A stretch of DNA of 64,000 nt from Bacteroidota bacterium (GCA_013298545.1 JAAFIA010000004.1:26832-90831), one strand, 5' to 3'. Shown: positions 1 through 16,875, numbered from the stretch's first letter. Notes: a model not told the origin generated them from the letters alone. Program-made: numbers and translations.

Positions 1-10
1 TACAAAAAAA

Positions 11-3000
11 TCACTCCTGCACCGGCCACATCCACGAACCATCTGGACGCATGTACCCAACGCCATTGCCTTGATGCACCCGTTGAATGCGCGGCGAAAC
101 TTCGGTGATGTAATCGTACTCCACGGGCACAAAAGTTTTTCCGGAAGAAGTAAAAATTCCGGTCATGCCAAACAACCGACAACGCGCCAAGCCCTCGCTG
201 TAAGCCTCAATACCATCGAAATACGGTGGAACTAAATAACGTCCCGTAAAACTAATCACGCCCCATTTTTGTCCAACTTTTACCGGCGCAACACCATGCG
301 AAAACGCATAGCCCTCGTCGAAATACAAACGGCCTAACTGATGCCCACCACGTGTTACATACCACGTATCAAACGTGTGGCTCATACTTGCATGCACTAA
401 AACGATATTTCCCGAAAACGAATTGGCCTGAGCGCCGCGCTCCAAACGAATCACCTCTTTTCCGGTTGTGTCCACATAAACCGTTTTGTAATTCTGCGTC
501 ATGGCCATCGCCAAGCCTTCCGAAAACGGTTTGGTGAGTTTGTAATACGGCGTATTTAAGCGATGCCCTTCGCGATCGACAAATCCCCAGCCTTGTTCCC
601 AACACACCGCCATCAACCCATTTTCAAAATGTGTTACACGCGCAAAAACAAAACCTGTTTTTGAAACACCAAGCGTATCGATAAAACTCCAGTACAAATT
701 TTTGCGCACCATGACACGTCCTTGCGAACATGCTTGAATCACATCGTAAAGTTGGCGCGTCAGTTCTTTTCCGGCATTGTTGGCAAGGGCGTATTGTCCG
801 CCTTCGCCGCGCACGGCCCAAAGCGTAGAACCCGGCACGGGATTGATTTCGCGGTAACGCAATTTTCCTTGTTCGCGTCCCGCAGCATCAACCAAGACCC
901 AAAGGGTTTTTAATTTTACGGGAGCAAATGCACCTGAAAAATCTTTTGCCATATCGTATTTCGATTCTATCACCAGCGCACCACTTTTGTCAATAAAGCC
1001 CCATTTGTTTTTCATCCGCACACGTGCCAAGCCACACTGAAAATCGCCCACGGCATCATGCGTTGCCGCAATCACAAGCGTTCCCGACGTATCCAGAAAC
1101 CCCCATTTTGTGCCTACGCGCACAGCCGCCAACCCTTCTGCAAACGCATGAATATCGGTAAACTGTTCTTCCACAAGCACGCCGCCCGATGTTTTGCATA
1201 CGCCCCATTTTCCCGTGTTGTTGAATGCGATGTAACCGCCGCCCATCAGTTTCGCGTTTTTCAATCCCGGTGGAATGACCAGTTTTCCTAACGTGTCGAT
1301 GTAGCCATAACGTGGCATGTATTTTTCGGCAATGACTAACGTGTCGTTTGTTTTTGAAAAACGCAGATGCCAATACTCAGGCGCAATACGCATCTTACCA
1401 AGCGTATCGACCAAGCCCCATTTTTTTTCTACCGAAACAATGCACAAACCTTTTCGGTACGCACTAACGGCAGTATAAATTGTTGGAATCATCACCTTCC
1501 CCGTCATGCTGATGTAGCCCCATTTTCCGCCAGAAAGAAAAACATGCATGCGTTTCAGTTCTTCTTTCGAAACACCAGCAGGGCCTGAGAAAGAACGCTT
1601 TTCGTCAATTTCGTTTGTATGAATAAACGATGACATGGACATTAAAAATGTTCCTTCTTGTGTTTCTACACTAGCAAGCAATTTTCCTTCGATACATACT
1701 TTTATCATGCCTTCAGGTGTGGGCTTGAACGCATGTGTAAGCGGAATAAAACCTGCCGTACCGTCGATGCTTACGAGTCCTGCTTGTCCGTCGGCGCGTG
1801 TGCAACGAATCAATTTAAAAGCACGGTTCGTGGCACATAAATTCAAATCAACATCTTCGATGTGTGTGTAGTTTAACGGCAACACAAAAGCGCCTGACGT
1901 ATCGTTGACAACACCGTAAAGCATTAAAGAAAATGTTTGTTTACCATTGAGTGTCGGACCGTTTCCGTCTCCACTTTTTCCAACAACCGTATAAAAACCA
2001 GGGACAAATTGCCCGCCCAAAAAAGAAGAGGTATTGACGCGTCGAATGAAATCAAACATAGGTTGAATGATGGTATCGCGCGTGGCGATGTTGAGCAAGC
2101 CCCAACCTTTTTCACAAACAAAAAACCAATCGGTTGTTGCAGCGCGAACTCCTGCTATTGATTTTAAGGACAACGGCTGATCGGCCCAACCATCATCGTT
2201 GGTCAGATCGGTTGGAAGACGCGTATCGCCACCAATTTTAATGGTGCGTAATTGGGCATAATCTGTTCGTTCGAGTACATTGCCATCAGCATCAATTTTA
2301 AGAAATGCTGCGCCGCCATCTTTGCGCCTTGCCTTCACCAAATTTTCGCGAAACAAAATTTCTTGCTCGGCCAGTTTAACAATGTGTTCTCCTTTTTTGT
2401 TGACCAGCAAGGATACGTTTTTGATGTGGGCCAAAGCAACGCCATGCCCGAATGGCCGCACCAAATCATAGCTCGTGGGTAAAATAATTTTTCCGTCGGC
2501 GGAAGCAGCCCCCCATTTTTTTTGTTGATACAACAACCACATGCCTTCATTGCCATCGAGAATATCGGTGTAAATGGGTTGCAAAACCAATTGCCCAAGC
2601 GTATCAAACAAGCCACATAATTTTTTCTCGTTGTAGCCTTTCATGTATTTGCCATTGGCGGGAAGAAAGCCAATGTATTTTTCAACGGAAAGTCGTTTTT
2701 GATATTTGCTGGAATACAAAACCGCCGAATCGCCGCGCGCACCGACAATGAAATAATGCGAAGGTTGCAACAAAGTATCCCAAATGCAAGGCATGATTTT
2801 ATTTCCGTCGCGGTAAATCGCGCCCCATAAATTTTTGATGCGCATGCCTAGAATATCGGCATGAACCCATTTCAAATAATCGCAGGTGTCGCCAACGAGC
2901 CGAACGCCTTCAAACGTAATGGCGCCGAGTTTTTTTCCTTTCACAAGCATGAGTGTGCGGTTACGCATCACGAGTGCTGTATCGTAGATGGGTTCGGTGA

Positions 3001-3538
3001 TCACAAGGCCATCGGAATTGATGAAGCCCCAGAGCGAATCGGCTTTGTAGCCAATCACACCACCAAAAAAACCGCCGATGTCGCTGTATTTTGCAGGAAG
3101 AATTTTTTTACCGCTAGCCGTAATCAATCCCCAGCCGCCAGCATCGCCCTGCTCCCCGAAAAACTCATAATACGCAAGCATGTTGCCATAAATCACACGC
3201 AACATATCGAACCCTTCGGGCGTGATGATACGCCCTGAAGAGTCAACAGCATACGCTTTGTTTCCTTGTTGCACCACACCAATTCCATTTTCGAAATCGG
3301 CAGCAGCATCGTACGCAGGCGCAATGGCAATTTTTCCCAACGAATCGCAGTAGCCCCAACGCCCGCCCACACGCACCGGAAAACGGTTAATCGTAGGCAA
3401 GACGATGTTTGGTTGAATGATCCAATTTGCGTTGACAGCAAGCGTTGTTGCAAGCCGGTTATTTGGATTTACTTGCGCACTTGCCACATGCGATAAGAGC
3501 ATGGCCAGAATGCTGAAAAGAAAATGCCGAGAGGTCAT
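11..3538 (-). CDS. WG-repeat (KWG-family) secreted protein, 1175 aa
   Basis: N-terminal signal peptide MTSRHFLFSILAMLLSHVASAQ. More than 20 repeats of ~35-40 aa, each containing KWG(Y/F/L)(I/V)D-type motifs, as in the Pfam WG_beta_rep / KWG family. No T9SS CTD. Confidence 0.75.
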   Translation of the reverse strand: MTSRHFLFSILAMLLSHVASAQVNPNNRLATTLAVNANWIIQPNIVLPTINRFPVRVGGRWGYCDSLGKIAIAPAYDAAADFENGIGVVQQGNKAYAVDSSGRIITPEGFDMLRVIYGNMLAYYEFFGEQGDAGGWGLITASGKKILPAKYSDIGGFFGGVIGYKADSLWGFINSDGLVITEPIYDTALVMRNRTLMLVKGKKLGAITFEGVRLVGDTCDYLKWVHADILGMRIKNLWGAIYRDGNKIMPCIWDTLLQPSHYFIVGARGDSAVLYSSKYQKRLSVEKYIGFLPANGKYMKGYNEKKLCGLFDTLGQLVLQPIYTDILDGNEGMWLLYQQKKWGAASADGKIILPTSYDLVRPFGHGVALAHIKNVSLLVNKKGEHIVKLAEQEILFRENLVKARRKDGGAAFLKIDADGNVLERTDYAQLRTIKIGGDTRLPTDLTNDDGWADQPLSLKSIAGVRAATTDWFFVCEKGWGLLNIATRDTIIQPMFDFIRRVNTSSFLGGQFVPGFYTVVGKSGDGNGPTLNGKQTFSLMLYGVVNDTSGAFVLPLNYTHIEDVDLNLCATNRAFKLIRCTRADGQAGLVSIDGTAGFIPLTHAFKPTPEGMIKVCIEGKLLASVETQEGTFLMSMSSFIHTNEIDEKRSFSGPAGVSKEELKRMHVFLSGGKWGYISMTGKVMIPTIYTAVSAYRKGLCIVSVEKKWGLVDTLGKMRIAPEYWHLRFSKTNDTLVIAEKYMPRYGYIDTLGKLVIPPGLKNAKLMGGGYIAFNNTGKWGVCKTSGGVLVEEQFTDIHAFAEGLAAVRVGTKWGFLDTSGTLVIAATHDAVGDFQCGLARVRMKNKWGFIDKSGALVIESKYDMAKDFSGAFAPVKLKTLWVLVDAAGREQGKLRYREINPVPGSTLWAVRGEGGQYALANNAGKELTRQLYDVIQACSQGRVMVRKNLYWSFIDTLGVSKTGFVFARVTHFENGLMAVCWEQGWGFVDREGHRLNTPYYKLTKPFSEGLAMAMTQNYKTVYVDTTGKEVIRLERGAQANSFSGNIVLVHASMSHTFDTWYVTRGGHQLGRLYFDEGYAFSHGVAPVKVGQKWGVISFTGRYLVPPYFDGIEAYSEGLARCRLFGMTGIFTSSGKTFVPVEYDYITEVSPRIQRVHQGNGVGYMRPDGSWMWPVQE

Positions 3539-3592
3539 GACATAAAAGTTGAAAGTGAAAAAAACAGGCGTAACGAAAAAAGAAAAAGACGA

Positions 3593-4933
3593 TTAGAGGG
3601 AATTGATAATCGTATTTAAATCGCCCACTGTTTTTGCTTGCATCGTGCTTGGCGTAAATGAAAAGCGCACCGACTCGTTATTTTTTGCTTTGACTTTTGC
3701 AAAGGCGTCGCGTGTCATGACACACACGTCATTGGTTTTGTTGCGAATGGCAATAAGCCCACTTTTCATGGATGGCGAAAAACGAAAACTTATTCCAGAT
3801 TGTGCCGAAACAGCAATGGCGTTTCCATCGGCAATGAGATAAAGCGTAACATCTTCGCGGTGATCGTTGAACGCTTGGCTTCCGAAATCGAAATCGGCTG
3901 CTACAACAATTGCATCGGGCCGACCAAAGATGCGATCGCAATTGGCAAAGCCAAAACGTGTAATGCTGACTTGGCGTGTGAAAGGCGGTGTAGCGGCCAA
4001 TTGATCTTCGCGTTGTTGGCGGGCGGCTTCCCATGTTTTTAATTTTTCACGAAATGTTTGCCGCGCTTTTTCGAGATTTTCTTCGGTAAGAACCGGACGC
4101 ACTTGTGTTGTAAACGATTCGTCTGCCGCAGCGAGATTGAGTGTATAGGTTTGTTCGTCGGCATTTGGCTCAATACTCATGCGTGTCCACGACGTTGTAT
4201 AAACGCGTTTATCTTTTTCGGGATCGTTTCCTGTTCCGGCGTATTGCCAAAGGACGTTGTTGTAGCTTGCTAACTCGGGGCGAAGCGTTGGGTCAATATC
4301 AAAATTAATCATGGGCAAGTTGGGATCAACAGCTTGCGGTTCTGCTGGTCGAACATTCATTGCAGCGAGTGCCTTTGCAAGTTGTCTGAATGTGGAATTG
4401 GTATCAGCACCACCAGAAGATTTATAAACCCAATTACTGGCAACTGTATCGAGTTCGTAAAAGTTGAAATCGCCAGATTTGAAGGAAATAAAGGAGAGGG
4501 CGATATTTCCACCTTCGCGAACATAAACAGGTTTTCCGTTTTGCGAAGCGGTCAGTTCAAACATACCCGCCGACTCGAACGGATAAATTTGTCCGGCAGA
4601 ATCGTATTGCATAGTAATTCCAGAGGCAATGATTTCGGCGGCGGTATGAAATTCGCGGTAGGAAAACAAAACGTTTCCTTCAACGGTTTTTCCCGTTTCG
4701 TCAACAAGTGTTCCTTTTGGAATGGTGATGGTTGTGCCGGAGCTGGTTAGGAGTGTATCGTTTTCGCTCGCGTTGACGGTGTATTCTTGATCGGGAACAT
4801 CAACGTCTTTGAGTGGTGGAGCAACCGCATGTTCGCGGAGTTTGCCTTCTTTTGAAGGGGCGCAGGAATTGAGCGAAAAAGAAAGGGCCGCAAGTAGTGC
4901 GAGGCCAAGGACGAGGTTTTTTTGCGTTTGCAT
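3593..4933 (-). CDS. hypothetical lipoprotein
   Basis: The internal Met gives MQTQKNLVLGLALLAALSFSLNSC, a signal peptide plus lipobox. The ORF-track start (TTG at 4984) adds 17 non-signal residues. No recognisable domain. Confidence 0.6.
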   Translation of the reverse strand: MQTQKNLVLGLALLAALSFSLNSCAPSKEGKLREHAVAPPLKDVDVPDQEYTVNASENDTLLTSSGTTITIPKGTLVDETGKTVEGNVLFSYREFHTAAEIIASGITMQYDSAGQIYPFESAGMFELTASQNGKPVYVREGGNIALSFISFKSGDFNFYELDTVASNWVYKSSGGADTNSTFRQLAKALAAMNVRPAEPQAVDPNLPMINFDIDPTLRPELASYNNVLWQYAGTGNDPEKDKRVYTTSWTRMSIEPNADEQTYTLNLAAADESFTTQVRPVLTEENLEKARQTFREKLKTWEAARQQREDQLAATPPFTRQVSITRFGFANCDRIFGRPDAIVVAADFDFGSQAFNDHREDVTLYLIADGNAIAVSAQSGISFRFSPSMKSGLIAIRNKTNDVCVMTRDAFAKVKAKNNESVRFSFTPSTMQAKTVGDLNTIINSL

Positions 4934-4998
4934 GTGATCAGCGTTTATGGCATAATACCGGAATGTGCCAAAAGGTAACCCCAAAGCAAAAAATATTT

Positions 4999-5541
4999 TT
5001 ACCGGTTATAGCTTTTCACCACAATTTGCGCAAAATCGAAGAGGGAATTGACGTACATATCGGCTTCAGGAAGCGAGGGGGCATCGCCAACAAAAACCGC
5101 TTGCATACCCGCATTGCGGGCAAAGCCCATATCGCTGTGCGAATCGCCAACCATGATGGCGTTTGCAAAATCAATTTCAGGAAAATCTTTTTTGGCAAGC
5201 AAGGCCATTCCAATTCCGGGTTTTCGCAAGGGCGAATTTTCAGAAGCGGCATTGGGCGAAAAGTAAACGGCATTAATTTTTCCGCCACGCTTTTTAATTT
5301 CAGCGCACATGTACGCATGAATTTTTTCGAGATCGGATGCGTTGTACAAGCCTTTCGAAATGCCTTGTTGGTTGGTAACAACAACAATGCGTTGAATATG
5401 TTTCGACAACATATTCAACGCATCTAAAACTCCGGGAAGAAATTTAAACTCTTCAAGCCGCTTAACGTAATCATTCATGAGCCGGACATTGATAACTCCG
5501 TCGCGGTCGAGAAATAGTGTAGTGGCTGAGTTGAGGTGCAT
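4999..5541 (-). CDS. gmhB: D-glycero-D-manno-heptose-1,7-bisphosphate phosphatase (HAD-IIIA family)
   Basis: FLDRDGVIN motif, VVVTNQ(Q)GI and GDSxSD motifs typical of GmhB/histidinol-phosphatase-like HAD-IIIA proteins. Start lies 2 bp after the upstream gene's stop, suggesting an operon with the BNR surface protein. Confidence 0.8.
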   Translation of the reverse strand: MHLNSATTLFLDRDGVINVRLMNDYVKRLEEFKFLPGVLDALNMLSKHIQRIVVVTNQQGISKGLYNASDLEKIHAYMCAEIKKRGGKINAVYFSPNAASENSPLRKPGIGMALLAKKDFPEIDFANAIMVGDSHSDMGFARNAGMQAVFVGDAPSLPEADMYVNSLFDFAQIVVKSYNR

Positions 5542-5542
5542 A

Positions 5543-8500
5543 TTAGTAGATTAAAACGCGACGAACCGTTTCCTGTTTGGAATTGGTTAAGCGAATCAAA
5601 AATGTTCCTGATCCGAAAGGAGTGAGGTCAAGTTGTTGGTTGTAGCGTCCGTTAAATTGTGTGAGTGTTTCGGCATAAATTTCACGACCGAGTGCGTCGC
5701 AAATACTTAACACATAATCGTCATTGGTTTGTACTTCGAACGCAAGTTGGAATTGGCCGTTGCTTGGATTTGGTGCAATGACAAAAAATCCGGCGGCTTC
5801 GTTTGGTGGAACGCCATTGACGAGCGTGGCTTGCGATTCGCCACCCGTACATCCAGAAGAGGTAAATGTAGCAACGCTGTACATCCCAACGTTTAATGCA
5901 GTATAGTTTTGCGATGTTGCTCCGGCAATGGGTGTGCCGTTGAAATACCATTGGTATTGCGGTGCGGCGGGCGAACAGGTGAGCATAAATCCATTAACCA
6001 AAACGGTTGGCATTTGCATCGGTGGTAACACAATCAACATGCGGGCACTAGACGCGGTACATCCATTGGTATCGGTTCCCGTTACCGAATAGGTTGTTGT
6101 TCCGTAAGGCCAAACGAGCGCAGAGTCATTGGCTGCGGTGTTGGTGTAGATGGATGGATTCCAGGTGTATTGCAAATTTTGATTGCTACAAGTAACCCAT
6201 GTTGTGTCGCCAAAACAAATAGAGGTAGCACTAGTAACCGAAAATCCCGGTAGGGGATTTACACGAATTTCAACAGAATCGGAGGAAGAACATCCGAATA
6301 CATCGGTTGTGGTTAAGACAAATATTTGTGTTCCGGCTTGTTGTGCAATAAGTGTTGGATTTTGAATGGTGGCATGGTCTAACCCTGTTGTTGGCGACCA
6401 AGAATAAGTTGCTGCACCAGTGCCGCTAAGTGTTATAAAACCGCTGTTGCATAAACTGGTATCTGCTCCAGCATTTACATTGGGTGCAGCAGCAACGGTG
6501 ATGGTTTGCGCAAGCGTATCGTTGCCGTTTGCATTCGAGACAATGAGCGTAACGGTGTACGTTCCAGCAGCGGTATAATTTACAACCGGATTTTGCGAAG
6601 TTGATGTATTCGGTGTTGCGCCAGGAAAATCCCAAGCCCATGCTGTTGCAGCAGGAGCAGATAGATCCGTAAACGACGCGTTACCATTTTGACAAACAGT
6701 TGCAGGTGCCGCAAATGCTGCGGTTGGCGGCAATGATGTTGATCCGCTGATGTTGATGTTATCGAGATAAATGAATTGGCCGTGATGTCCGCGATTTCTA
6801 AAAACAACCATCACGCTTGTTTGTCCGGCATAAGCATTGAGGTTGATGGTTTCGGTACGCCATTGGTTGTTGGTTGGCGTAAAGAGCGATGTTTGATCGG
6901 GTGTGGTAGCAAGTTGTGTTCCGCCTTTCAAAAACACGGAAGTAAATGTTGCGCCGCAATCGGAAGAGATCAATACTTCGATGGAGTCGCTGCGTGTAGC
7001 ATTGTAACGCGCATAAGCCACATCGAAATCGAGTTGAAGTGTTGTGTATCCCGTAAAATTAATTCCGGGAGAACGCAATTCGTCGCGGTCGTTGTTGACA
7101 ATGTTGTTGAAGTTGTTGAAATAAGCACACTCATTGCTGTTGTGCCCAACCGTGCTGCTGCGTTCCCAAACAAAATTCTGATTTCCGGCGTTGAGCATAC
7201 TCCATCCTGCTGGGACAAATGTTGTGGAAACAAAGCCTTCAACAACAGGAGGTGTCAACGCACCCGTAACCGTGATGTAGGTAAGTTTCGATTCAACAGC
7301 AGCACCAGCGATATTGGTCGCTGTAAGTGTTACAGGATAAACGCCGGGCGTGTTGTAAACAACAGTAGGATTTTGGAGCGATGATGTGCTTGGTGTTCCG
7401 CCAGGAAAATTCCAAGACCATGCCGTTGGAGCGAGTGTAGAAAGATCGGTAAACTGTACGGTTTGTCCGGGGCAAACCAACGTGTTATTTGCCGCGAAAT
7501 TGGCATCGGCAGTTAACAGCGAAAGATCAATCGGTGCTTCCCACACGCCACGCCCATAAGTCGATGCGCGCAAGGTCATGGTTGGCAGAAAAATTTTCAA
7601 ATCAGAAACGGGTGTATTCGGAAGACCTGTAAAAAAGGGTTGCCAAGAAGACATATTATCGTCGCGGTAATAAACACCCACATCGCATCCAACATACACG
7701 GCGTTATTTCCTGCACCTGGAATCGCTGCAACACAATTTGCAGGAAGGTTTGGCAATCCGTTGGAAATGTTGGTCCAAGAAATACCAGCATCGTGCGTTA
7801 CAAAAACATGGTAGTTGTTGTTATATCCAGACAGCGTAACCCAAAGCGTTTTCTCATCTTGCGGACTCACACCGATGCGCGAAATAGAAGAACCCGATGT
7901 TGAAATCGTACCTGTGATTGTTGTCCATGTAGCACCACCATTGCTCGATCTAAAAATCGCAGAACTGGAACAGGCGTAAATGTATTGTGTGTTTGACGGA
8001 GCAACTTCAATATCGACGAGTGTTGCGCCGTTTTGCAGTGTACCTAATTGTGTCCACGAGTTGCCTTGATTGGTTGATTTAAAAACCTGAGTATAGCCTG
8101 CATAAAGCGTATTGGCCACGAGTGGATCTTGACACCAAGGCGTAACCCAACCCGCATTGCCAGACAGGCCACTGGTAATTCCGGTCCAGTTATTTCCGCC
8201 ATTTGTAGAACGGTTGAAATCGCCATAATACAATTCGCCGTACATCACATTGTTGTTTGTGCGGTCGATGAAACAATCCATGCCATCGCCACCTAAAACT
8301 TCGGCGTACGAATTTCCACTTTTGAGATTTGTTCCGTTGTCTTGATGCCCCGTGATGAGTATGGTTGAGTTGCTTGCAGAAAGCCCCAAGCGATAGATTT
8401 GTGCAATACACATGTTGCTACTGATGTCAGCCCACGAATTTCCGTTGTTGGTTGTTTCAAATACACCACCATCGCAGGCCACAAAAATGGAAGAACCATT

Positions 8501-9862
8501 GTTTGGCAAAAATTCGATACCATGTATATCGGCATGCACATACGGCGCGCCGCCACCGCCATACCAATGTGCGTTTAAGTCCCAGCTCACACCGCCATCG
8601 GTAGAGCGCCAGACATTGACACCACCCACAAAAACTTCATCAGGATCTGTTGGCGATGCCGCTACTGCAAGATCATACCATGCTTGTCCATCGGTATCGT
8701 TACCGCTTGGACTCCATCCTAAAAGGTTTGGAGAACTTGCTTGACTCGTAAACGAAACGCCGCTATTGACAGATCGGTACATGCCTTGAAAACCTTGTGT
8801 TCCGGTTTCTCCCGCAAGCAAATAAATATAATTTGGATTTGCTGGTGTTACGGCAATGGCCAAACGACTTACTTGATTTGAGGACGGAACACCCGTGGTT
8901 GTTTGAATCCACGAATACCCTCCGTTTGTGGTGTAATAAAATTTGGTGTTGACAACATAAAGTGTGTTTGGATCGCCGGGCTTAAACTCCATATCTTTTA
9001 CTTGATAGCCAACAGAAACAAACCAGTTTGCACCGCCGTCTGTACTTTTATAAACCCCTGCGCTCGTTCCAGCATAAACGATATTGGGACTTGTTGGGTG
9101 AATCAAAATTTTCGAAATTTTTCGTTGTTGACTTTGTGCAAAAGAAAGGCCAGTTGTATTCCAAGTCAATCCGCCATCTGTTGTTTTTAAAACACCAATA
9201 GAAGGCGAATCGCCCCCGTCATGATCGCCCGTTGCGAGATACATGATGTTTGAATTGCTTGGATCGATGGCTAAATCGGAACATCCGATAACGGGCAAAT
9301 TGTCGGTAAGACAAACCCAAGAGCCACCACCGTCTGTTGATTTCCACAAGCCACCTGCGGGCGCGCCAGCGAAAAGGATGTTGTTGTTTCCGGGAAGAAA
9401 ACGAATAAAGTTGATACGACCTGCACCACCGTCGATAGGAGCACCTGTTGGTCCAACAAAACTCCAAGCCGAACTACTTCGCGCATTGGGGTTCTGGCTT
9501 GCGCGCCACGCTGCCATTGCTGCCGGATTCTGATTGAGGTAATCCATGAAGTAAGGGTAGGTGTTGGCGGTTAACGAAAGATCGCCACTTGGAAAAACGC
9601 GGGGCGCCATAAAATCTTCCCAGCGTTTATATAAAAAATAGGTGCCTTCGCGTTGTTCATTTTCTTCTTGTACACCCTCGCGCCGCTCGCGCAACATTTC
9701 GGCTTCTTTATCGCCCCATTCCGATTGGAATGCCCGCTGAATATCGTAAAAGTTTGCACCAGGCGTTTGCCAGAGTGTTAGCCAGTTTGGTTGCGATGGA
9801 TTTTGTGCAAATCCCATTGCGCCAAAAAAGGCTGAAAGGAGAATAATGAGTGTACGTTTCAT
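5543..9862 (-). CDS. BNR/Asp-box repeat (sortilin/Vps10-like) cell-surface protein with PKD-like domains and T9SS type-A C-terminal sorting domain
   Basis: True start MKRTLIILLSAFFGAMGFAQ (signal peptide) at 9862; the ORF-track start at 9934 is an over-extension. About 10 SxDGGxTW Asp-box repeats and two PKD-like domains (FTDLS..WSWNFPGG). C-terminus ...GTFLIRLTNSKQETVRRVLIY is a Por/T9SS CTD. Confidence 0.85.
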   Translation of the reverse strand: MKRTLIILLSAFFGAMGFAQNPSQPNWLTLWQTPGANFYDIQRAFQSEWGDKEAEMLRERREGVQEENEQREGTYFLYKRWEDFMAPRVFPSGDLSLTANTYPYFMDYLNQNPAAMAAWRASQNPNARSSSAWSFVGPTGAPIDGGAGRINFIRFLPGNNNILFAGAPAGGLWKSTDGGGSWVCLTDNLPVIGCSDLAIDPSNSNIMYLATGDHDGGDSPSIGVLKTTDGGLTWNTTGLSFAQSQQRKISKILIHPTSPNIVYAGTSAGVYKSTDGGANWFVSVGYQVKDMEFKPGDPNTLYVVNTKFYYTTNGGYSWIQTTTGVPSSNQVSRLAIAVTPANPNYIYLLAGETGTQGFQGMYRSVNSGVSFTSQASSPNLLGWSPSGNDTDGQAWYDLAVAASPTDPDEVFVGGVNVWRSTDGGVSWDLNAHWYGGGGAPYVHADIHGIEFLPNNGSSIFVACDGGVFETTNNGNSWADISSNMCIAQIYRLGLSASNSTILITGHQDNGTNLKSGNSYAEVLGGDGMDCFIDRTNNNVMYGELYYGDFNRSTNGGNNWTGITSGLSGNAGWVTPWCQDPLVANTLYAGYTQVFKSTNQGNSWTQLGTLQNGATLVDIEVAPSNTQYIYACSSSAIFRSSNGGATWTTITGTISTSGSSISRIGVSPQDEKTLWVTLSGYNNNYHVFVTHDAGISWTNISNGLPNLPANCVAAIPGAGNNAVYVGCDVGVYYRDDNMSSWQPFFTGLPNTPVSDLKIFLPTMTLRASTYGRGVWEAPIDLSLLTADANFAANNTLVCPGQTVQFTDLSTLAPTAWSWNFPGGTPSTSSLQNPTVVYNTPGVYPVTLTATNIAGAAVESKLTYITVTGALTPPVVEGFVSTTFVPAGWSMLNAGNQNFVWERSSTVGHNSNECAYFNNFNNIVNNDRDELRSPGINFTGYTTLQLDFDVAYARYNATRSDSIEVLISSDCGATFTSVFLKGGTQLATTPDQTSLFTPTNNQWRTETINLNAYAGQTSVMVVFRNRGHHGQFIYLDNINISGSTSLPPTAAFAAPATVCQNGNASFTDLSAPAATAWAWDFPGATPNTSTSQNPVVNYTAAGTYTVTLIVSNANGNDTLAQTITVAAAPNVNAGADTSLCNSGFITLSGTGAATYSWSPTTGLDHATIQNPTLIAQQAGTQIFVLTTTDVFGCSSSDSVEIRVNPLPGFSVTSATSICFGDTTWVTCSNQNLQYTWNPSIYTNTAANDSALVWPYGTTTYSVTGTDTNGCTASSARMLIVLPPMQMPTVLVNGFMLTCSPAAPQYQWYFNGTPIAGATSQNYTALNVGMYSVATFTSSGCTGGESQATLVNGVPPNEAAGFFVIAPNPSNGQFQLAFEVQTNDDYVLSICDALGREIYAETLTQFNGRYNQQLDLTPFGSGTFLIRLTNSKQETVRRVLIY

Positions 9863-9954
9863 GAGAAGATGATTGATTGTATTGAGCAGCACGAATATCG
9901 GTATTTCAAATGGATTAACGCCTGTAGGAAACACCGATTAATAAGCATAAAATA

Positions 9955-9985
9955 AAAACGGATAGCTGTTGGGCTATCCGTTTTT
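9955..9985. terminator. intrinsic terminator (bidirectional hairpin) between the two giant surface-protein genes
   Basis: aaaacggatagc-tgttgg-gctatccgtttt: a 12-bp stem flanked by an A-tract on one side and a T-tract on the other. Confidence 0.7.
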
Positions 9986-10003
9986 ACATAACAAAGAATG
10001 AAT

Positions 10004-13000
10004 TTAGTACGTGATGGTACGTGTAATGATTTCGTTTGTTTCACTCTTCAAACGGATGGTGTAAACACCACGCTCTTTTGTTGATAGATCAATTTGTTTG
10101 CTGTATGTTCCAGAGAAGCTCGTCAGATCTTCGCGGTAAACAACTTGACCCAGCACGTCATAAATTTCGAGCACGTAGTTTTCTTTCTTATCCACATTGA
10201 ATCGCAATTCAAAACGACCGTCGTTTGGATTTGGATATAACGAGAAGAAGTTTGCCGCAGATGTACCTTCGATTCCAGTAATCATGATTGGTTGCGATTC
10301 AACAGAAGGACAGCCAATAGCATCATACACAACAACAGTATAGTTGCCTGTTTGTGTTGCGGTATAAGTTTGTGCAGTTGCGCCTGGGATCGGATTTCCA
10401 TTGAGGAACCACTGATAACTTGCTCCTGTTACAGACGATGTCAGTACGTTGCCAACATTGGTAATGGTTGGTGTTGCAGGTGTTGAACCAACAGTTACGG
10501 TTACAACAACCGTTGCCGTACAACCATTGATGTCTGTTCCTGTTACGGTGTACGATGTTGTTGTTGCTGGAGAAACGGTTACAGAAACGCCGCTAAGGTT
10601 GCCCGGATTCCACGTGTAAGTATCAGCGCCTTGCGCGGTAAGTGTTGTGGCATCGCCAGGGCAAATTTGTTGATTGCCGGTAGCGGTTACAGTAGGCGCG
10701 TCGTTTACGTTAATGGCAACTGTGCCAACGTTTGTACAGCCATTTGCATCTGTTCCTACAACGGTGTAAGTAGTATTTGACACAGGAGAAACAGTTACTG
10801 GAGATCCGCTGAGGTTGCCAGGGTTCCAAGTGTAGGTATTTGCTCCTGATCCGCTAAGAACGGTGCTGTTTCCAGTACAGAGTGTGGTATTCGATGCAGA
10901 CGCAGCAACAGTCGGTAAGCTATTGACGGTTACAGCAACGGTCGATGTATTTGTACAACCGTTTGCATCTGTTCCTGTTACGGTGTAAGTGGTTGTCGCA
11001 GTTGGTGCATCGGTTACAGAAGCACCGCTCAAATTACCCGGCATCCAGTTGTATGAAGATGCGCCACTAGCGGTCAACGAAACAGAAGATCCTTGGCAAA
11101 TTGCGGCATTGCCAGATGTTGCCGTAACGGTTGGCGGCGTATTGACCGTGATCGAAACAGTAGAGGTGTTTGTACAACCTGCAGCCGATGTTCCAGTTAC
11201 AGTATAGGTTGTGTTTGCTGTTGGAGCAACACTAACCGAAGAACCAGAGAGGTTGCCCGGATTCCAAGTGTATGTTGATGCGCCACTGGCATTCAGCGTT
11301 GTGTTTCCACCAGAACAAATTGTACTGCTTGTTGCGGTCGAAGAAATGGTTGGCAATTGATTGACCGTTACCAGAACAGTTGCTGTATTTACGCAGCCCG
11401 GGCCGTTTGAACCTGTTACGGTGTATGTCGTTGTCGTTGCTGGCGAAACGGTAACAGAAGCGCCACTCAAGTTGCCCGGCATCCAGTTGTACGTTGTCGC
11501 GCCATTGCCTGTCAGTGTTGCAGAATTGCCAATACAAATTGCCGCATTAGAAGTTGCTGCAGTTACTGTTGGCAAACTTCCTACTGTAATTGTAATGGTT
11601 TGAACGTTTGTGCAACCACTCGTAGTTCCTGTTACGGTGTACGTTGTTGTTACGGCAGGAGTAACGGTAATCGATGCACCACTCAAGTTGCCTGGTTGCC
11701 AGTTGTATGTGGTTGCGCCTGATGCCGACAAGGTAACAGGATTGCCTGTGCAGATACTTGTGCTCGAAGCGGTAGTCGTAACAGTTGGAGAAGGGTTAAC
11801 CGTAATGGTTTGGTTAAACGTGTCTGTGCAACCATTGGCTGCTGTTCCGGTTACGGTGTACGTTGTTGTTGTTGTTGGCGACACCGTTACAGAAGTACCA
11901 CTCAAATTGCCCGGTTGCCAAGTATAGGTGCTTCCACCAGCAGCCGTAATGGTTGTGCTGTTTCCAGAACAAATCGTTGCGAGTGCAGTTGACGCGGTTA
12001 CGTTTGGCGTTGTGTTAACCGTAATGGTTCGTGTTGTTGTTCCTGTACAGCCAGCAGAGGTACCTGTGATGGTATAGGTTGTTGTTACAGCAGGAGATAC
12101 AGTTACCGACGCACCACTCAAATTGCCCGGCATCCAATTGTAGGTTGTTGCTCCAGAAGCCGTGATGGTGGTGCTATTTCCAGAACAGATGGTGGTGTTT
12201 GTAGCTGTTGTGGTTACTGTTGGCGAAGGATTGACAGTAATAGTTTGATTCACCGTGTTTGTACAACCATTCGCCGCAGTTCCTACGATGGTGTAGGTTG
12301 TTGTTGTTGTTGGCGACACCGTGTTTGAAGCACCACTTAAATTACCCGGTTGCCAGTTGTACGTGCTTGCACCAGAGGCTGTGATGGTTGTACTGTTTCC
12401 AGAACAAATTGTAGCGAGCGCAGTTGATGCTGTTACGGTTGGTGAGGTATTAACCGTAATGGTTCGTGTTGTTGTTCCTGTACAGCCACCTGTAGTTCCG
12501 GTGATGGTATAAGTTGTCGTTGTTGCAGGAGATACTGTTACTGAAGCACCACTCAAATTACCCGGCATCCAATTGTAGGTTGTTGCTCCAGAGGCAGTAA
12601 TGGTTGTACTATTGCCAGAACAAATCGTCGTATTTGTCGCCGTAGTTGTAACGGTTGGACTTGGCGTAACGGTTATCTGAACGGTTGAAGTCGCAGAACA
12701 ACCTGCCGATGTTCCCGTTAAGGTATAAGTTGTCGTTGTTACAGGAGATACCGTTACTGAAGCGCCACTCAAATTGCCCGGCATCCAGTTATACGTTGAT
12801 GCACCAGTAGCCGTGAGTGTTGTACTGTTTCCAGTACAAATGGCTGTATTTGATGCCGTAGCGGTTACCGTTGGTGTTGGATTTACAGTAATGGTACGCG
12901 TTGATGTTCCCGTACAACCAGCCGATGTTCCCGTAATGGTGTATGTTGTTGTTGTTGTTGGCGACACCGTATTTGAAGCACCAGTCAAACTACCGGGCAT

Positions 13001-16000
13001 CCAGTTGTAGGTTGTAGCACCAGAAGCGGTAATGGTTGTGTTGTTGCCCGAACAAATGGTTGTACTGGTTGCCGTAGTTGTAACGGTTGGAGTAGCGTTT
13101 ACAGTAATAACCTGTGTGGCACTACTGTTGCCATTTCCATTGGTAGCGGTGAGTGAAACAGTATATGTTCCGGGTGTGTTCCAAACAATACCAGAAGGAT
13201 TTTGTGCTGTTGACGATGCCGGAGTTCCACTCGGGAATGTCCAAGCCCAACTTGTTGGGCCGCCTGTTGAAGCATCGGTAAAATTGACGGTTGCGCCTGT
13301 ACATACTGTTGTTGCGCTTGCGGTAAATGCAGCAACTGGGCCAGCAGCAGCGTTTCCGGCAAGGTTTACGTTATCAACATAAAGCGCTTGTCCGTAGCGT
13401 CCGCGGTTGCGGAATGCGACGAGCACAGAACCTTGACCAACATAGGCATTTAGGTTAACTGATTCGTTGCGCCATTGTGCGTTTGTTGGAACAAAAATGG
13501 TTGCTGTTTGATCGGGAGCGGTTGCAAGTGTTGTGCCTCCTTTCAAATAAACCGAAGTCCATGTTGCTCCACAATTGGTAGAAACAACGACTTCAAGTGT
13601 ATCGGAATAGGTAGCGTCGTAGCGCGCATAAGCGACATCAAATGTTAACGAGCAGGTAGTGAGTGCAGAAAAATTAAGGCGAGGCATAATCATCTCGTCT
13701 CGTGCACCTGCTACGTCCATTGTATAGTTATCAAATCGAGCACTTGCGGTTGAGTTGTAACCAACTGTTTGACGGTTCCAATAAATACCATCGTTATTGA
13801 TGTTGTTTGCCGTCCAGCCCGCAGGGAGGAATGTTGTTGATTCAAATCCTTCCGATATAGGCGGATTTTGAACACCAAGAACTGTAATGACTTGCGTAGT
13901 AGCATTGCTGCCGTTTGCGTTTGTTGCAGTAAGCGTTACCGTATATGTTCCGGGTGTATTCCAAACAATACCGCTTGGATTTTGTGCCGTTGATGTTGAT
14001 GGAGTTCCACTTGGGAAAGTCCAAGCCCAAGAGGTTGGAACAAAAGAGGATTGGTCGGTAAAGTTTACGCCCACTCCCGTGCATGTTGTAAATGTGCTTG
14101 GAGTAAATTGCGCCACCGGAGGCAATGTTCCGGGATTGTAAATATCAACTTCCCAAACACCACGTCCATACGTTGCCGCGCGAAGCTTGCCTGTTGGGGC
14201 ATAAACTTCAAGATCTTCGATACCGCAATTCGGAATACCAGTGAGGTAAGGCTGCCAAGAAGCGAATGTATTATCGATGTAATACACGCCAACATCCATA
14301 CCTACATAAGCCGCATCATTTGTTGCACCTGGCATATAAGTAATACAGTTTGCAGGAAGATTTGGAAGGCCCGTAGAAAGGTTTGTCCATGCTCCGCCAC
14401 CATTGGTAGTTTTATATACTTTATTTCCAGAAGAATAGCCAGAGAATGTTACCAAAACGGTGTTTGGATCATTTGGTTTAATAGCCAATCGAGTAATGGC
14501 CGCCGAACCAACAGGAAGTGTACCCGTTACGTTTGTCCAAGCACCACCACCATTGGTTGATTTCCAGACTTGGTTAGAGCGGCACACATAAATCACCTGA
14601 TTGTTTGATGGGGCAACTTGAATATCGACAATTGTTCCTGATCCAGTTAATGTGCCTTGTTGCGTCCAATTCGTTCCTTGGTTGGTTGACTTAAAGACTT
14701 GTGTATAACCCGCCCAAAGTGTATTGGCTGTTGTCGGATCTTGTACCCAAGGCGTAACCCATGCTGCATTTCCTGTAAGGCCAGTAATAATTCCTGTCCA
14801 TGTAGCACCGCCATTGGTTGTTCGGTTAAAGTTACCATTGTATTGCTCGCCATACATGACATTGTTGTTTGTGCGATCAACAAAGCAAGTCATACCATCG
14901 CCGCCCATCGTTTCGGAATAACCCGCACCGTTGCGCAGGTTCGTTCCATTGTCTTGGTGGCCAGTGAGCCAGTATGTAGGATTAGAGGCAGATAAACCAA
15001 TACGATAGATTTGAGCGATGCAAAGATTTGCTGAAATATCGGCCCAAGCACCGCCGCTGTTGGTTGTTTTAAACACACCACCGTCGCAACCTGCAAAATA
15101 AGTTGTACCACTTCCGGGCAAGAACACGAGATCGTGAACGTCTGCATGCACATAAGGTGCGCCGGTGCCAGTCCAGTGTCCATTGATTGTCCATGTTGTA
15201 CCGCCGTTTGTGGAGCGCCAAATATTGACACCACCTACAATAATTTGGTCTTGGTTGAGTGGAGAAGCGGCAATGGCTAAATCATACCAACTTTGTCCAC
15301 CAGTATCGCTACCTGTGCTTGACCAACCCAGCACGTTTGGTGTTGTAGAGCGTGAAGCAAATGTTGTTCCGCTATCGGTAGAGCGATAAAGGCCATAAAA
15401 ACCACTATTGGCATTGCTTCCAGCTAAAATATACACATAAGCAGGATTTGCTGCGGTAACAGCAATTGCTAAACGGTTGTTTTGTGCGCTTGTTGGAAGG
15501 CCAGAGGTAATGTTTGTCCATGTTGCACCGCTGTTTGTTGATTTATAGAACAATGTTCCAGCAGCATAAATGGTTGTCGGATCGCCAGGTTTAAATTCTG
15601 CATCTTTAATGTTGGCCGTACTTACTTGAGCCCAATTTACACCAGCATCAGTCGAACGCCAGATACCCGCACTGGAGAAGGCCATGATGATTTGTGGATT
15701 GGATGGGTTGATGAGCAATTTGCTAATCACGCGGCCTTGGTTTACTGTCCAAGTCAAGCCTGATGTATTCCATGTAGTACCACCATCAGTCGATTTTAAA
15801 ACGCCAATCGAGTAAGAGTCGCCCGCATCGCCATCGCCAGTAGCCAAATACATGATTTGTGTATTGGTTGGATCAATAGCCACATCGGTACAGCCGATGA
15901 CGGTCAGAAAATCGGTATTGGTTGTCCAACTAACACCTCCGTTAATTGATTTCCAGAGGCCGCCATCGGGAGCGCCAGCCCACATGGTAGTGCTGTTGGT

Positions 16001-16540
16001 GGGGTCAAAACGCACAAAATTGATACGCCCCGCGCCGCCGCCAGAAGGAGCGCCAGTTGGCCCAGCAAACGTCCATGTGCTCGACATAATCGAGTTGGAA
16101 TTGTTCTGGAAATAGTTTTGTTGATTTTGTTGGCCTTGCATCCATTGTTGAAGCGCAGCAGGATTGCTTTGCAAATAGCTATTGAATTTGGCCGTAGTTG
16201 TAGAAGGCAAGCTCAAATCGCCAGAAGGATAAACACGGGGTTCCATGCGGTATTCCCAGCGTTTAAAAGCCTTGTAGCCACCACGCATATTGGGCATGGG
16301 GGTAATATTCTGTGGGTTTATGGTTGAGAATTTAGAACCCGCTTGCGCATTGTCTTGACGCGCCTGCATCAATTGTTGTTCGCGTGCGCCCCAGATACTA
16401 TAAAAATTGGCCTGAATGTCGTAGAAGTTCGTTCCTGGAGCGTTTTGTATAAACTCGCGCCAATCTTGTGCATACAAAGACGATGTGGCAGAAAGCAAAA
16501 CAAAAAGAACCCAGCGAAAGCGTAAAAAATTACGAATCAT
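10004..16540 (-). CDS. giant (2178 aa) BNR/Asp-box surface protein with 2 PKD-like domains, 12 tandem ~75-aa Cys-containing Ig-like repeats and T9SS type-A CTD; paralog of the 5543..9862 protein
   Basis: True start MIRNFLRFRWVLFVLLSATSSLYAQ at 16540 (the ORF-track start at 16648 adds junk residues). The N-terminal ~800 aa are collinear with the upstream paralog (WTFAGPTGAPSGGGAGRINFVRFDP vs WSFVGPTGAPIDGGAGRINFIRFLP). Repeats of the form ..ICSGNSTTITASGATTYNWMPGNLSGASVTVSPATTTTYTITGT..GC.. x12. C-terminal CTD ...GVYTIRLKSETNEIITRTITY. Confidence 0.85.
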   Translation of the reverse strand: MIRNFLRFRWVLFVLLSATSSLYAQDWREFIQNAPGTNFYDIQANFYSIWGAREQQLMQARQDNAQAGSKFSTINPQNITPMPNMRGGYKAFKRWEYRMEPRVYPSGDLSLPSTTTAKFNSYLQSNPAALQQWMQGQQNQQNYFQNNSNSIMSSTWTFAGPTGAPSGGGAGRINFVRFDPTNSTTMWAGAPDGGLWKSINGGVSWTTNTDFLTVIGCTDVAIDPTNTQIMYLATGDGDAGDSYSIGVLKSTDGGTTWNTSGLTWTVNQGRVISKLLINPSNPQIIMAFSSAGIWRSTDAGVNWAQVSTANIKDAEFKPGDPTTIYAAGTLFYKSTNSGATWTNITSGLPTSAQNNRLAIAVTAANPAYVYILAGSNANSGFYGLYRSTDSGTTFASRSTTPNVLGWSSTGSDTGGQSWYDLAIAASPLNQDQIIVGGVNIWRSTNGGTTWTINGHWTGTGAPYVHADVHDLVFLPGSGTTYFAGCDGGVFKTTNSGGAWADISANLCIAQIYRIGLSASNPTYWLTGHQDNGTNLRNGAGYSETMGGDGMTCFVDRTNNNVMYGEQYNGNFNRTTNGGATWTGIITGLTGNAAWVTPWVQDPTTANTLWAGYTQVFKSTNQGTNWTQQGTLTGSGTIVDIQVAPSNNQVIYVCRSNQVWKSTNGGGAWTNVTGTLPVGSAAITRLAIKPNDPNTVLVTFSGYSSGNKVYKTTNGGGAWTNLSTGLPNLPANCITYMPGATNDAAYVGMDVGVYYIDNTFASWQPYLTGIPNCGIEDLEVYAPTGKLRAATYGRGVWEVDIYNPGTLPPVAQFTPSTFTTCTGVGVNFTDQSSFVPTSWAWTFPSGTPSTSTAQNPSGIVWNTPGTYTVTLTATNANGSNATTQVITVLGVQNPPISEGFESTTFLPAGWTANNINNDGIYWNRQTVGYNSTASARFDNYTMDVAGARDEMIMPRLNFSALTTCSLTFDVAYARYDATYSDTLEVVVSTNCGATWTSVYLKGGTTLATAPDQTATIFVPTNAQWRNESVNLNAYVGQGSVLVAFRNRGRYGQALYVDNVNLAGNAAAGPVAAFTASATTVCTGATVNFTDASTGGPTSWAWTFPSGTPASSTAQNPSGIVWNTPGTYTVSLTATNGNGNSSATQVITVNATPTVTTTATSTTICSGNNTTITASGATTYNWMPGSLTGASNTVSPTTTTTYTITGTSAGCTGTSTRTITVNPTPTVTATASNTAICTGNSTTLTATGASTYNWMPGNLSGASVTVSPVTTTTYTLTGTSAGCSATSTVQITVTPSPTVTTTATNTTICSGNSTTITASGATTYNWMPGNLSGASVTVSPATTTTYTITGTTGGCTGTTTRTITVNTSPTVTASTALATICSGNSTTITASGASTYNWQPGNLSGASNTVSPTTTTTYTIVGTAANGCTNTVNQTITVNPSPTVTTTATNTTICSGNSTTITASGATTYNWMPGNLSGASVTVSPAVTTTYTITGTSAGCTGTTTRTITVNTTPNVTASTALATICSGNSTTITAAGGSTYTWQPGNLSGTSVTVSPTTTTTYTVTGTAANGCTDTFNQTITVNPSPTVTTTASSTSICTGNPVTLSASGATTYNWQPGNLSGASITVTPAVTTTYTVTGTTSGCTNVQTITITVGSLPTVTAATSNAAICIGNSATLTGNGATTYNWMPGNLSGASVTVSPATTTTYTVTGSNGPGCVNTATVLVTVNQLPTISSTATSSTICSGGNTTLNASGASTYTWNPGNLSGSSVSVAPTANTTYTVTGTSAAGCTNTSTVSITVNTPPTVTATSGNAAICQGSSVSLTASGASSYNWMPGNLSGASVTDAPTATTTYTVTGTDANGCTNTSTVAVTVNSLPTVAASASNTTLCTGNSTVLSGSGANTYTWNPGNLSGSPVTVSPVSNTTYTVVGTDANGCTNVGTVAINVNDAPTVTATGNQQICPGDATTLTAQGADTYTWNPGNLSGVSVTVSPATTTSYTVTGTDINGCTATVVVTVTVGSTPATPTITNVGNVLTSSVTGASYQWFLNGNPIPGATAQTYTATQTGNYTVVVYDAIGCPSVESQPIMITGIEGTSAANFFSLYPNPNDGRFELRFNVDKKENYVLEIYDVLGQVVYREDLTSFSGTYSKQIDLSTKERGVYTIRLKSETNEIITRTITY
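10490..13110 (-). repeat. in-frame tandem DNA repeats (~225-228 bp unit, ~12 copies, ~85-95% identity) encoding the Ig-like repeat block
   Basis: Near-identical DNA blocks, for example 12030-12260 versus 12450-12680. The antisense strand yields repeated spurious ORFs with PLKLPGIQLY-type translations. Confidence 0.8.
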
Positions 16541-16875
16541 AATACGTGGTGTTTGGTTGGTGTGGTAATTCTTATTGAATAGGTGCGAAATAGAAAAAAT
16601 TACATAAGAAGTGCCAAAAAAGATCAAGAAGATGTCAAAATACGACAAGTCCTAAGCCGCTTCTAAAATTTGTACTCGTTCTATTTACACAGCAACAAGT
16701 TACGCGTTATAACATAGAAAAGGTTCTTTTTTTAGACAAAAGCACCAAAATACTCGCCAAGTGCTAAAAAAATGTTTTTTAAAATGATAAACACTAAAAT
16801 GTTCATTAAATACCTCGCCTTACCCCAAAATTGCCAAAGCCTCTTTCTAGTTTAGCTACCAATAATTCCAACGGT

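Follow-up and report, generated by a model that had tools for sequence, protein, structure and literature searches.

A paralogous pair of predicted type IX-secreted surface proteins with a GH74-like head on a long or a short Ig_7 stalk in uncultured Bacteroidia

Fibrillar adhesins and Periscope Proteins combine a distal N-terminal head, a stalk of tandem domains, and a C-terminal anchor; the number of stalk domains sets the projection distance and varies among relatives (PMC8201768, PMC9210967). In Periscope Proteins, the tandem repeats are long and highly identical, and repeat number varies between strains (PMC8201768). Another described system is GhpA, the grappling-hook protein of Aureispira (PDB 9fls, 9flp), a protein of 5898 aa with a C-terminal type IX secretion system (T9SS) sorting domain. 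Fifty-two Ig-like repeats make up its rigid stem, in which disulfides join domains that lie close to one another; Thr/Ser-associated densities on the stem were interpreted as glycans (bioRxiv 10.1101/2024.01.29.577165). We analyzed a 64,000-nt stretch of DNA from a Bacteroidota bacterium (GCA_013298545.1, JAAFIA010000004.1:26832-90831; hereafter, the window), which carries, as a first-pass annotation of the sequence had reported, two adjacent minus-strand open reading frames (ORFs) of 2178 and 1439 aa. We refer to them as A and B, respectively. The explanation that we consider likely is that they form an old pair of paralogous T9SS surface proteins, in which a GH74-like and probably non-hydrolytic head is carried on a long (12) or short (2) stalk of Ig_7 domains.

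The locus resembles each of the described systems in part. A and B have the N-terminal head, tandem stalk, and C-terminal anchor of fibrillar adhesins, and domain number in the stalk of A likewise varies among relatives. Unlike the LPXTG or type I and type V secretion signals of fibrillar adhesins, their anchor is a type A T9SS C-terminal domain (CTD), and unlike those of Periscope Proteins, the repeats of A are diverged (mean 64% nucleotide identity) and stable in number among close relatives. With GhpA, they have in common Cys-containing and Thr/Ser-rich tandem Ig-like repeats, a C-terminal T9SS sorting domain, and a Bacteroidota origin. The repeats number 12 and two instead of 52, and the hollow rod of GhpA is heptameric and its head hook-shaped, whereas A and B have a predicted propeller head. 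GhpA is thought to be anchored via the PorP/PorE-like GhpB/C; A and B have a type A CTD and no adjacent ghpB/C-like genes. A conserved pair of long and short paralogues is not a described feature of the fibrillar adhesin/Periscope class, and the A/B pair is an uncharacterized addition to the known class of stalked T9SS surface proteins.

The two proteins are 50% identical and collinear over ~1390 aa, and they are paralogues that arose by gene duplication. The first-pass annotation had proposed the same from a collinear region of ~800 aa; the paralogy stands, and its extent had been underestimated. Domain order is the same in both: a signal peptide, a helical region with a GH74-like twin propeller, a PKD domain, a MAM/CBM-like domain, another PKD domain, Ig_7 units, an Ig-like domain, and the CTD. 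Pfam and NCBIfam searches bore out the BNR region, PKD-like domains, and T9SS CTDs that had been annotated in both proteins (Sortilin-Vps10/BNR, two PKD domains, and a type A CTD). The CTDs scored 50.7 bits (A) and 36.7 bits (B) against PF18962 (cut-off 27) and 41.7 bits (A) and 34.9 bits (B) against TIGR04183 (cut-off 23). Predicted N-terminal Sec signal peptides, assigned by inspection only, are MIRNFLRFRWVLFVLLSATSSLYAQ in A and MKRTLIILLSAFFGAMGFAQ in B. The start codon of A is ambiguous, being placed by JGI at a TTG at 16648 (2214 aa) and by NCBI at the ATG at 16540 (2178 aa); the signal-peptide-like stretch opens at the ATG and not at the TTG. Read from the ATG, the A protein is identical to protein P0054, encoded on a contig of 110.5 kb in an NCBI metagenome-assembled genome (MAG).

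We modeled the head of B with AlphaFold2 (AF2; aa 24-785, pLDDT 89.7, predicted TM-score 0.88) and obtained ~100 aa of helices followed by all-beta propellers. In a Foldseek comparison with the PDB, the best 25 matches were all GH74 (E ~1e-30 to 1e-24, TM-score 0.59-0.69, identity 15-20%), a fold of two seven-bladed propellers (PMC9103125). GH74 xyloglucanases (Clostridium thermocellum Xgh74A, 2cn2; ClGH74a, 6p2m) share with the A/B head two seven-bladed Asp-box propellers that form a cleft, and the head differs from them in its extra N-terminal ~100 aa of helices. A comparison of 2cn2 (ADIGG) with 2cn3 (the AAIGG mutant) pinpointed the N-terminal catalytic Asp of the GH74 (T/A)DIGG motif. By sequence alignment, this Asp corresponds to Pro168 in the APAGG of B, which is kept in at least 90% of B-type sequences. 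Since the catalytic Asp faces a conserved Pro, the head has a GH74-like fold but is not a canonical GH74 enzyme, and we consider it probably glycan-binding rather than a canonical GH74 hydrolase.

The stalk of A consists of exactly 12 tandem units, as had been annotated, of 72-73 aa each (216 or 219 bp start to start; ~225 bp had been proposed) and with two invariant Cys per unit. A domain search with the repeat, which the first-pass annotation had suggested, assigned the module to Pfam Ig_7 (PF19081, "Ig-like domain CHU_C associated"), with a score of 78.9 bits for the whole of A against a cut-off of 27.3. Taken singly, 12 of the 14 units (12 from A and two from B) matched PF19081 at E<0.01, each alone below the cut-off. 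An AF2 model of units 11-12 together with the C-terminal Ig-like domain and CTD (pLDDT 94) is all-beta with about seven strands per unit, in agreement with the Cys-pair beta-sandwich module predicted earlier. Compared with the PDB, the best eight matches of this stalk model were Ig-like stem fragments of GhpA (E 1e-14 to 3e-11, ~20% identity). The module had been thought to be inserted in the larger gene only, but B holds two diverged copies, which share the invariant P, C, Y-x-W-x-P, and GC positions with the units of A. The array of A is 29% Thr and 12% Ser. Glycosylation of the stalk drew no support from the Bacteroidota O-glycosylation motif D(S/T)(A/I/L/V/M/T), whose sites are too few (one in A, five in B, and none in the array of A). 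At another locus (L082:1-3530), the gene upstream of B is not A but a different T9SS cargo with Peptidase_M43, PKD, and Ig_7 domains, from which it follows that the stalk modules are reused with other heads.

The units are considerably more diverged than had been assumed. DNA identity between units is 54%-83% (mean 64%; neighboring units, 56%-75%), where 85%-95% had been stated, and the longest exact direct repeat within the array is 39 nt. Tandem Repeats Finder picked up only the first six units, at 70%-76% matches. These six form an alternating two-unit super-repeat with a period of 435 bp, in which units two apart are 80%-83% identical, while units 7-12 are 54%-69% identical to every other unit. 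The array thus shows an age gradient between units 1-6 and units 7-12. For units 3 and 5, identity is 96% in protein and 83% in DNA, synonymous divergence (dS) is 0.78, and the nonsynonymous-to-synonymous ratio (dN/dS) is 0.06; between units overall, dN/dS ranges from 0.04 to 0.21, and the youngest pairs have a dS of ~0.8. With similarity high in protein and lower in DNA and with low dN/dS, the units are long-standing duplicates maintained by purifying selection. As the array is not near-identical, ready recombination and collapse in short-read assemblies, both raised by the first-pass annotation, are not expected.

We then compared repeat number across relatives, which were taken from a database search with B that returned two length classes; units were counted with a hidden Markov model built from the 12 units of A. 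B-type proteins (1423-1481 aa) had two units in 58 out of 58 cases. A-type proteins had three to 16 units, with longer proteins having more, and the A gene at one genomic locus (L025) had 19. The closest complete relative, L080 (with the same sequence as L081 from a second sample), is ~86% identical in DNA, and its A protein also has 2178 aa and 12 units. Units 5-12 of the window are positional orthologs of the L080 units (87%-93% nucleotide identity). Units 3 and 5 of L080 are 97% identical to each other in DNA, L080 unit 3 is closer to window unit 5 than to window unit 3, and unit 2 is diverged in both genomes. These patterns are gene-conversion signatures in the head-proximal part of the array. 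Unit pairs in other orthologs are 93%-99% identical in protein.

In a third related MAG, the A gene is split over two contigs at the unit 9/10 boundary; its pieces of 1814 and 447 aa share ~83 aa as judged by eye and total ~2178 aa, consistent with 12 units. The pieces (P0122/P0123, from a related NCBI MAG with ~90% amino acid identity) show a few differences in the overlap, and units 1-6, which are the most similar ones, do not contain the break; strain heterogeneity may be a better explanation for it than repeat collapse. Short-read collapse is unlikely because the longest exact repeat is only 39 nt. A complete and independent assembly at ~86% nucleotide identity has the same 12 units, and the fragmented one is consistent with it. 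Variation in unit number was seen only among orthologs with at most 74% amino acid identity. The comparison of copy number that had been proposed thus gave 12 in the nearest complete relative and three to 19 farther out, for relatives and not same-species strains. The earlier idea that such an array changes protein length holds across the family, and it is ready recombination here that is not expected. The family as a whole does expand and homogenize its stalk, yet the array in this lineage is old, diverged, and stable, and copy number changes over evolutionary time and, it seems, not between strains. At this locus, neither assembly collapse nor rapid variation is likely.

To place the pair in its genomic setting (Table 1), we used the window proteins to annotate 75 loci, which were taken from species-representative genomes and came without exception from MAGs of uncultured Bacteroidia or Flavobacteriales.

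Table 1. Features of the A/B locus, in positions of the window
Feature	Coordinates	Strand	Description
Gene A	10004..16540	-	2178 aa from ATG; T9SS type A cargo; from ORF, translation, and Pfam/NCBIfam domains
Ig_7 array of A (stalk)	10490..13096	-	12 tandem units, aa 1149-2017
Intrinsic-terminator-like hairpin	9952..9987	-	15-bp stem, then T run; within A-B spacer
Gene B	5543..9862	-	1439 aa; paralogue of A with identical build, but 2 diverged Ig_7 units, aa ~1126-1276
Head of B	7508..9793	-	aa 24-785; ~100 aa of helices, then two seven-bladed Asp-box propellers
HAD-IIIA phosphatase, GmhB-like	4999..5541	-	180 aa; directly 3' of B
Predicted lipoprotein	3593..4933	-	446 aa from MQTQ; lipobox LNSC
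Secreted WG-repeat protein	11..3538	-	1175 aa; PF14903, 309 bits
PhoH2 (PIN+PhoH)	16831-18222	+	divergent, upstream of A

The order of a divergent PhoH2 followed by A, B, and a HAD phosphatase gene was found at eight of the loci and on the JGI contigs L080/L081, and often ran on into the lipoprotein and WG-repeat genes. L022 has PhoH2, A, and B before the contig ends, and the contig of L008 starts inside A and continues through B, HAD, lipoprotein, and WG-repeat genes with a 2.2-kb gap between A and B. Where A and B are apart (L003/L004 and L001/L035), A keeps PhoH2 and B keeps the HAD gene. More distant genomes have a single A-like gene with zero to nine units, often adjoining PhoH2, and no HAD gene within 10 kb. 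The pair, often in tandem order, is kept across MAGs in which B is only 50%-57% identical, and the duplication is old and not recent. By this distribution of loci, A is at the ancestral site, B is an old duplicate, and the long stalk expanded in the A lineage. PhoH2 adjoins an A-type gene at 24 loci in all, among them distant genomes in which the A-like protein is devoid of Ig_7 units; for this very stable synteny, no functional rationale is obvious.

A and B are probably not transcribed together. The GC-rich hairpin downstream from A starts its stem-and-T-run 17 nt after the A stop codon, and the A-B spacer of 141 nt folds as a whole at a minimum free energy of -34.7 kcal/mol. A comparable GC-rich hairpin and T run follows the A stop in nine of 10 other loci with A upstream of B, with unrelated sequences, and a conserved terminator hairpin makes it most likely that A is monocistronic. 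B and the HAD gene, by comparison, are separated by 1 nt (TAAtATG; TAA at 5545-5543, ATG at 5541-5539), confirming the earlier placement of gmhB directly after the stop of the smaller gene. The spacer is also 1 nt in L080 and ranges from -14 to +97 nt in 16 other loci, with several TAATG-type overlaps; a terminator-type element cannot fit in 1 nt. B is probably co-transcribed with the HAD gene, to judge from this arrangement. The linkage of gmhB to the smaller gene proposed in the first-pass annotation is real and conserved; A is cut off by the terminator hairpin, leaving only B as plausibly operonic with the HAD gene.

We asked how far the name gmhB is justified for the phosphatase. Its best PDB matches were GmhB enzymes (E. 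coli 2gmw/3l8e; E 1e-22, ~37% identity), and its motifs DRDGV, VVVTNQ, RKP, and GDSHSD align to GmhB of E. coli and Burkholderia, so that all catalytic motifs (DxD, T, K, GDxxxD) are present and HAD-IIIA motifs I-IV are common to the E. coli enzyme and the window protein. It fell below every NCBIfam GmhB cut-off (NF006506, 133 vs. 178; TIGR00213, 100.7 vs. 149.6; NF050049, 107 vs. 250) and passed only HAD-IIIA and histidinol-phosphatase-domain models. The Cys/His Zn site of E. coli GmhB is missing, which we rejected as evidence against GmhB identity since operon-embedded sister GmhBs of Bacteroidota are also without it. Homologs 56%-58% identical lie in operons with SIS (GmhA) and nucleotidyltransferase (HddC) genes at L083 and L084; the latter adds a GHMP kinase (HddA; NCBI name D-glycero-alpha-D-manno-heptose-7-phosphate kinase) and a glycosyltransferase. 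In a neighbor-joining tree, the B-linked HADs fall into one clade, with the GmhBs of these gmhA-hddA-hddC operons as its sister group; the Zn site is missing from all of them. Given the operon sister clade and the structural matches, "GmhB-like, probably GDP-heptose pathway" is a fair name; the original label is reasonable on these grounds, although the protein scores below the cut-offs of the GmhB family models.

The HAD gene adjoins B downstream in 19 of 21 informative B loci, the exceptions being L017 and L028. L017 and L084 belong to one MAG, where gmhB sits in the heptose operon. Unlike GmhBs of the pathway, the window HAD is detached from other pathway genes and directly follows a T9SS cargo gene: a phmmer search of all ORFs of the window and the fetched loci found GmhA, HddA, HddC, and the glycosyltransferase of L084 only in L083 and L084, and gmhA, hddA, and hddC were absent from the 64-kb window and from the 10-kb flanks of B-linked loci. 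A database search with HddA gave matches 75%-89% identical in many Bacteroidota, none on a contig attributable to the genome of the window, and is uninformative on the pathway there. The HAD gene contains (5386-5424, minus strand; aa ~40-52) an inverted repeat, GATGCGTTGAATATGTT GTCGA AACATATTCAACGCATT, whose arms of 17 bp pair perfectly around a loop of 5 nt; it is identical in L080 although dS for the gene between the two genomes is 0.30. We rejected it as a conserved regulatory element, as it occurs only in the window and L080 and is absent at this position in 22 other HAD orthologs.

Alternative readings of the pair were weighed against this evidence. A might be a Periscope-type variable-length protein with fast strain-level repeat change, its count of 12 being perhaps an assembly artefact. 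Repeat number does vary widely among orthologs (3-19), some of which have near-identical units (up to 99% in protein), and both the gene-conversion signature of L080, with units 3 and 5 at 97% nucleotide identity, and the related MAG whose two contigs break the gene within the array would fit. But the class is defined by highly identical repeats and strain-level variation (PMC8201768), and the window units, at 54%-83% and a mean of 64% DNA identity, with no exact repeat beyond 39 nt and dS ~0.8 between the youngest, are not highly identical. No strain-level change in number was seen, the nearest complete relative, at ~86% nucleotide identity, not being a same-species strain; in that independent assembly A has 2178 aa with 12 units, and the overlap of the two pieces from the third assembly agrees with this length. 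We regard the Periscope reading as very improbable. A and B might instead be secreted polysaccharide-degrading enzymes with a catalytic GH74-like head, in which the PKD, CBM-like, and Ig domains are accessory modules and not an adhesin stalk. That the best fold matches of the head are all GH74 xyloglucanases speaks for this, as do a weak NCBIfam match to "F510_1955 family glycosylhydrolase", weak matches of the middle domain to the xyloglucan-binding SGBP-B and to CBM6/60, an invariant Asp in the second propeller, and the export of many glycoside hydrolases by the T9SS (PMC11611037). The conserved Pro at the N-terminal catalytic Asp speaks against it; the 15%-20% identity to GH74 comes largely from Asp-box repeats, the glycosylhydrolase score is far below its cut-off (123 vs. 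175), the conserved neighborhood has no SusC/SusD or other glycan-utilization genes, and a stalk of 12-19 domains is atypical of an enzyme. We hold a role as enzymes to be unlikely, though deserving some weight. For the reading that we favor, a stalked and probably non-hydrolytic surface protein pair, several observations count on the other side. Surface attachment, as opposed to release, is carried over from type A cargo of P. gingivalis; an adhesin or lectin function is suggested by the architecture and the missing catalytic Asp; and the domain between the PKDs matches MAM, InhA-MAM, SGBP-B, and CBM6/60 in Pfam, all below threshold. D464 (CDGG), at the pseudo-symmetric position in the second propeller, is invariant, so some enzymatic activity is possible; no reliable sequence alignment of D464 with the second GH74 catalytic Asp was obtained. 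Co-transcription of B and HAD is suggested by their spacing, and a sigma-70 promoter scan (10 sites vs. 21 in shuffled controls), being unsuited to Bacteroidota promoters, is uninformative on an internal gmhB promoter.

The adjacency of B and gmhB raises a separate question, whether heptose made with the help of the phosphatase goes into a glycan decorating or anchoring B, or T9SS cargo in general, with coupled expression; the first-pass annotation had pointed to anchoring of cargo via modified lipopolysaccharide. In favor are the adjacency at 19 of 21 informative loci, with stop and start codons often overlapping or nearly abutting; its persistence through rearrangements that part A from B; the single clade of B-linked HADs, sister to GmhBs of gmhA-hddA-hddC-glycosyltransferase operons; and stalks with 29% Thr and 12% Ser, given the putative Thr/Ser glycans on the GhpA stem (bioRxiv 10.1101/2024.01.29.577165). 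Against it, no gmhA, hddA, or hddC lies in the 64-kb window or any 10-kb flank, the HAD gene is absent at two B-like loci (L017 and L028), and O-glycosylation motif matches are few (A, one; B, five). GmhB-family HADs can also be promiscuous. The T9SS cargo linkers characterized so far are free of heptose; the one of P. gingivalis is SAGA-Hex-dHex(Pent)-Hex (PMC13086638, in which heptose has zero mentions; PMC7468200). Finally, PhoH2 and A stay adjacent at least as consistently although no functional link between them is evident, and the even wider conservation of this adjacency argues that the neighborhood is simply stable and that synteny inertia is a sufficient explanation. A tie of gmhB to cargo anchoring is therefore speculation, with synteny alone behind it; we think the functional link improbable, and the anchoring interpretation did not find support. 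We would give hardly any credence to a more far-reaching scenario, in which gmhB left a GDP-heptose operon and became translationally coupled to one T9SS cargo gene, tying heptose supply for a cargo-specific glycan or anchor to expression of B, while the pair displays one ligand-binding head at two fixed heights above a glycan layer.

If A and B are indeed stalked surface proteins, a tentative picture can be drawn. By analogy with characterized type A cargo, cleavage of the CTD would leave a new C-terminus that becomes attached to the outer membrane, so that the stalk would be cell-proximal and the head distal. A and B would then display a like head at two heights, on 12 and two stalk domains, respectively. 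A retains the ancestral place beside PhoH2, with B as the derived copy, and the stalk of A lengthens and shortens as units duplicate or undergo gene conversion, chiefly near the head and over evolutionary time scales. A would form its own transcription unit, and B would be co-transcribed with the gene for the GmhB-type sugar-bisphosphate phosphatase.

The genes for A, B, HAD, the lipoprotein, and the WG-repeat protein form one minus-strand string, of which the WG-repeat gene is the last conserved member. The lipoprotein matched no Pfam family; its orthologs lie 3' of the HAD gene at seven loci, and the WG-repeat gene is conserved beside it. B occurs with the lipoprotein gene and a ~1170-aa WG-repeat gene in two orders, B-HAD-lipoprotein-WG and, without HAD, lipoprotein-WG-B (L017 and L028), hinting at a link of B to these two genes that is independent of HAD. 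On the JGI contig L003 (positions 1-9630), the genes just upstream of the B ortholog include three without a counterpart in the part of the window that was examined: one for a pentapeptide-repeat protein, one for an unknown protein of 1314 aa, and one for an eCIS_core (PF13699) protein that has at least 1698 aa. B and HAD are separated in one MAG by three small genes (L001:14476-17873), whose products of 315-368 aa all have a T9SS CTD.

These results recast the array as a diverged and selectively maintained Ig-like stalk, not a recombination hotspot, with a 12-copy count that is trustworthy. The conserved B-gmhB junction is a cheap and testable lead. More than 7000 database proteins match at E <= 1e-20, of which many may share only PKD or Asp-box domains. 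The pair represents an uncharacterized but widespread family in which a T9SS anchor goes with a GH74-like and probably non-catalytic head and in which long-stalk and short-stalk paralogues are conserved together; the pair offers a natural system for asking if stalk length matters in Bacteroidota surface proteins.

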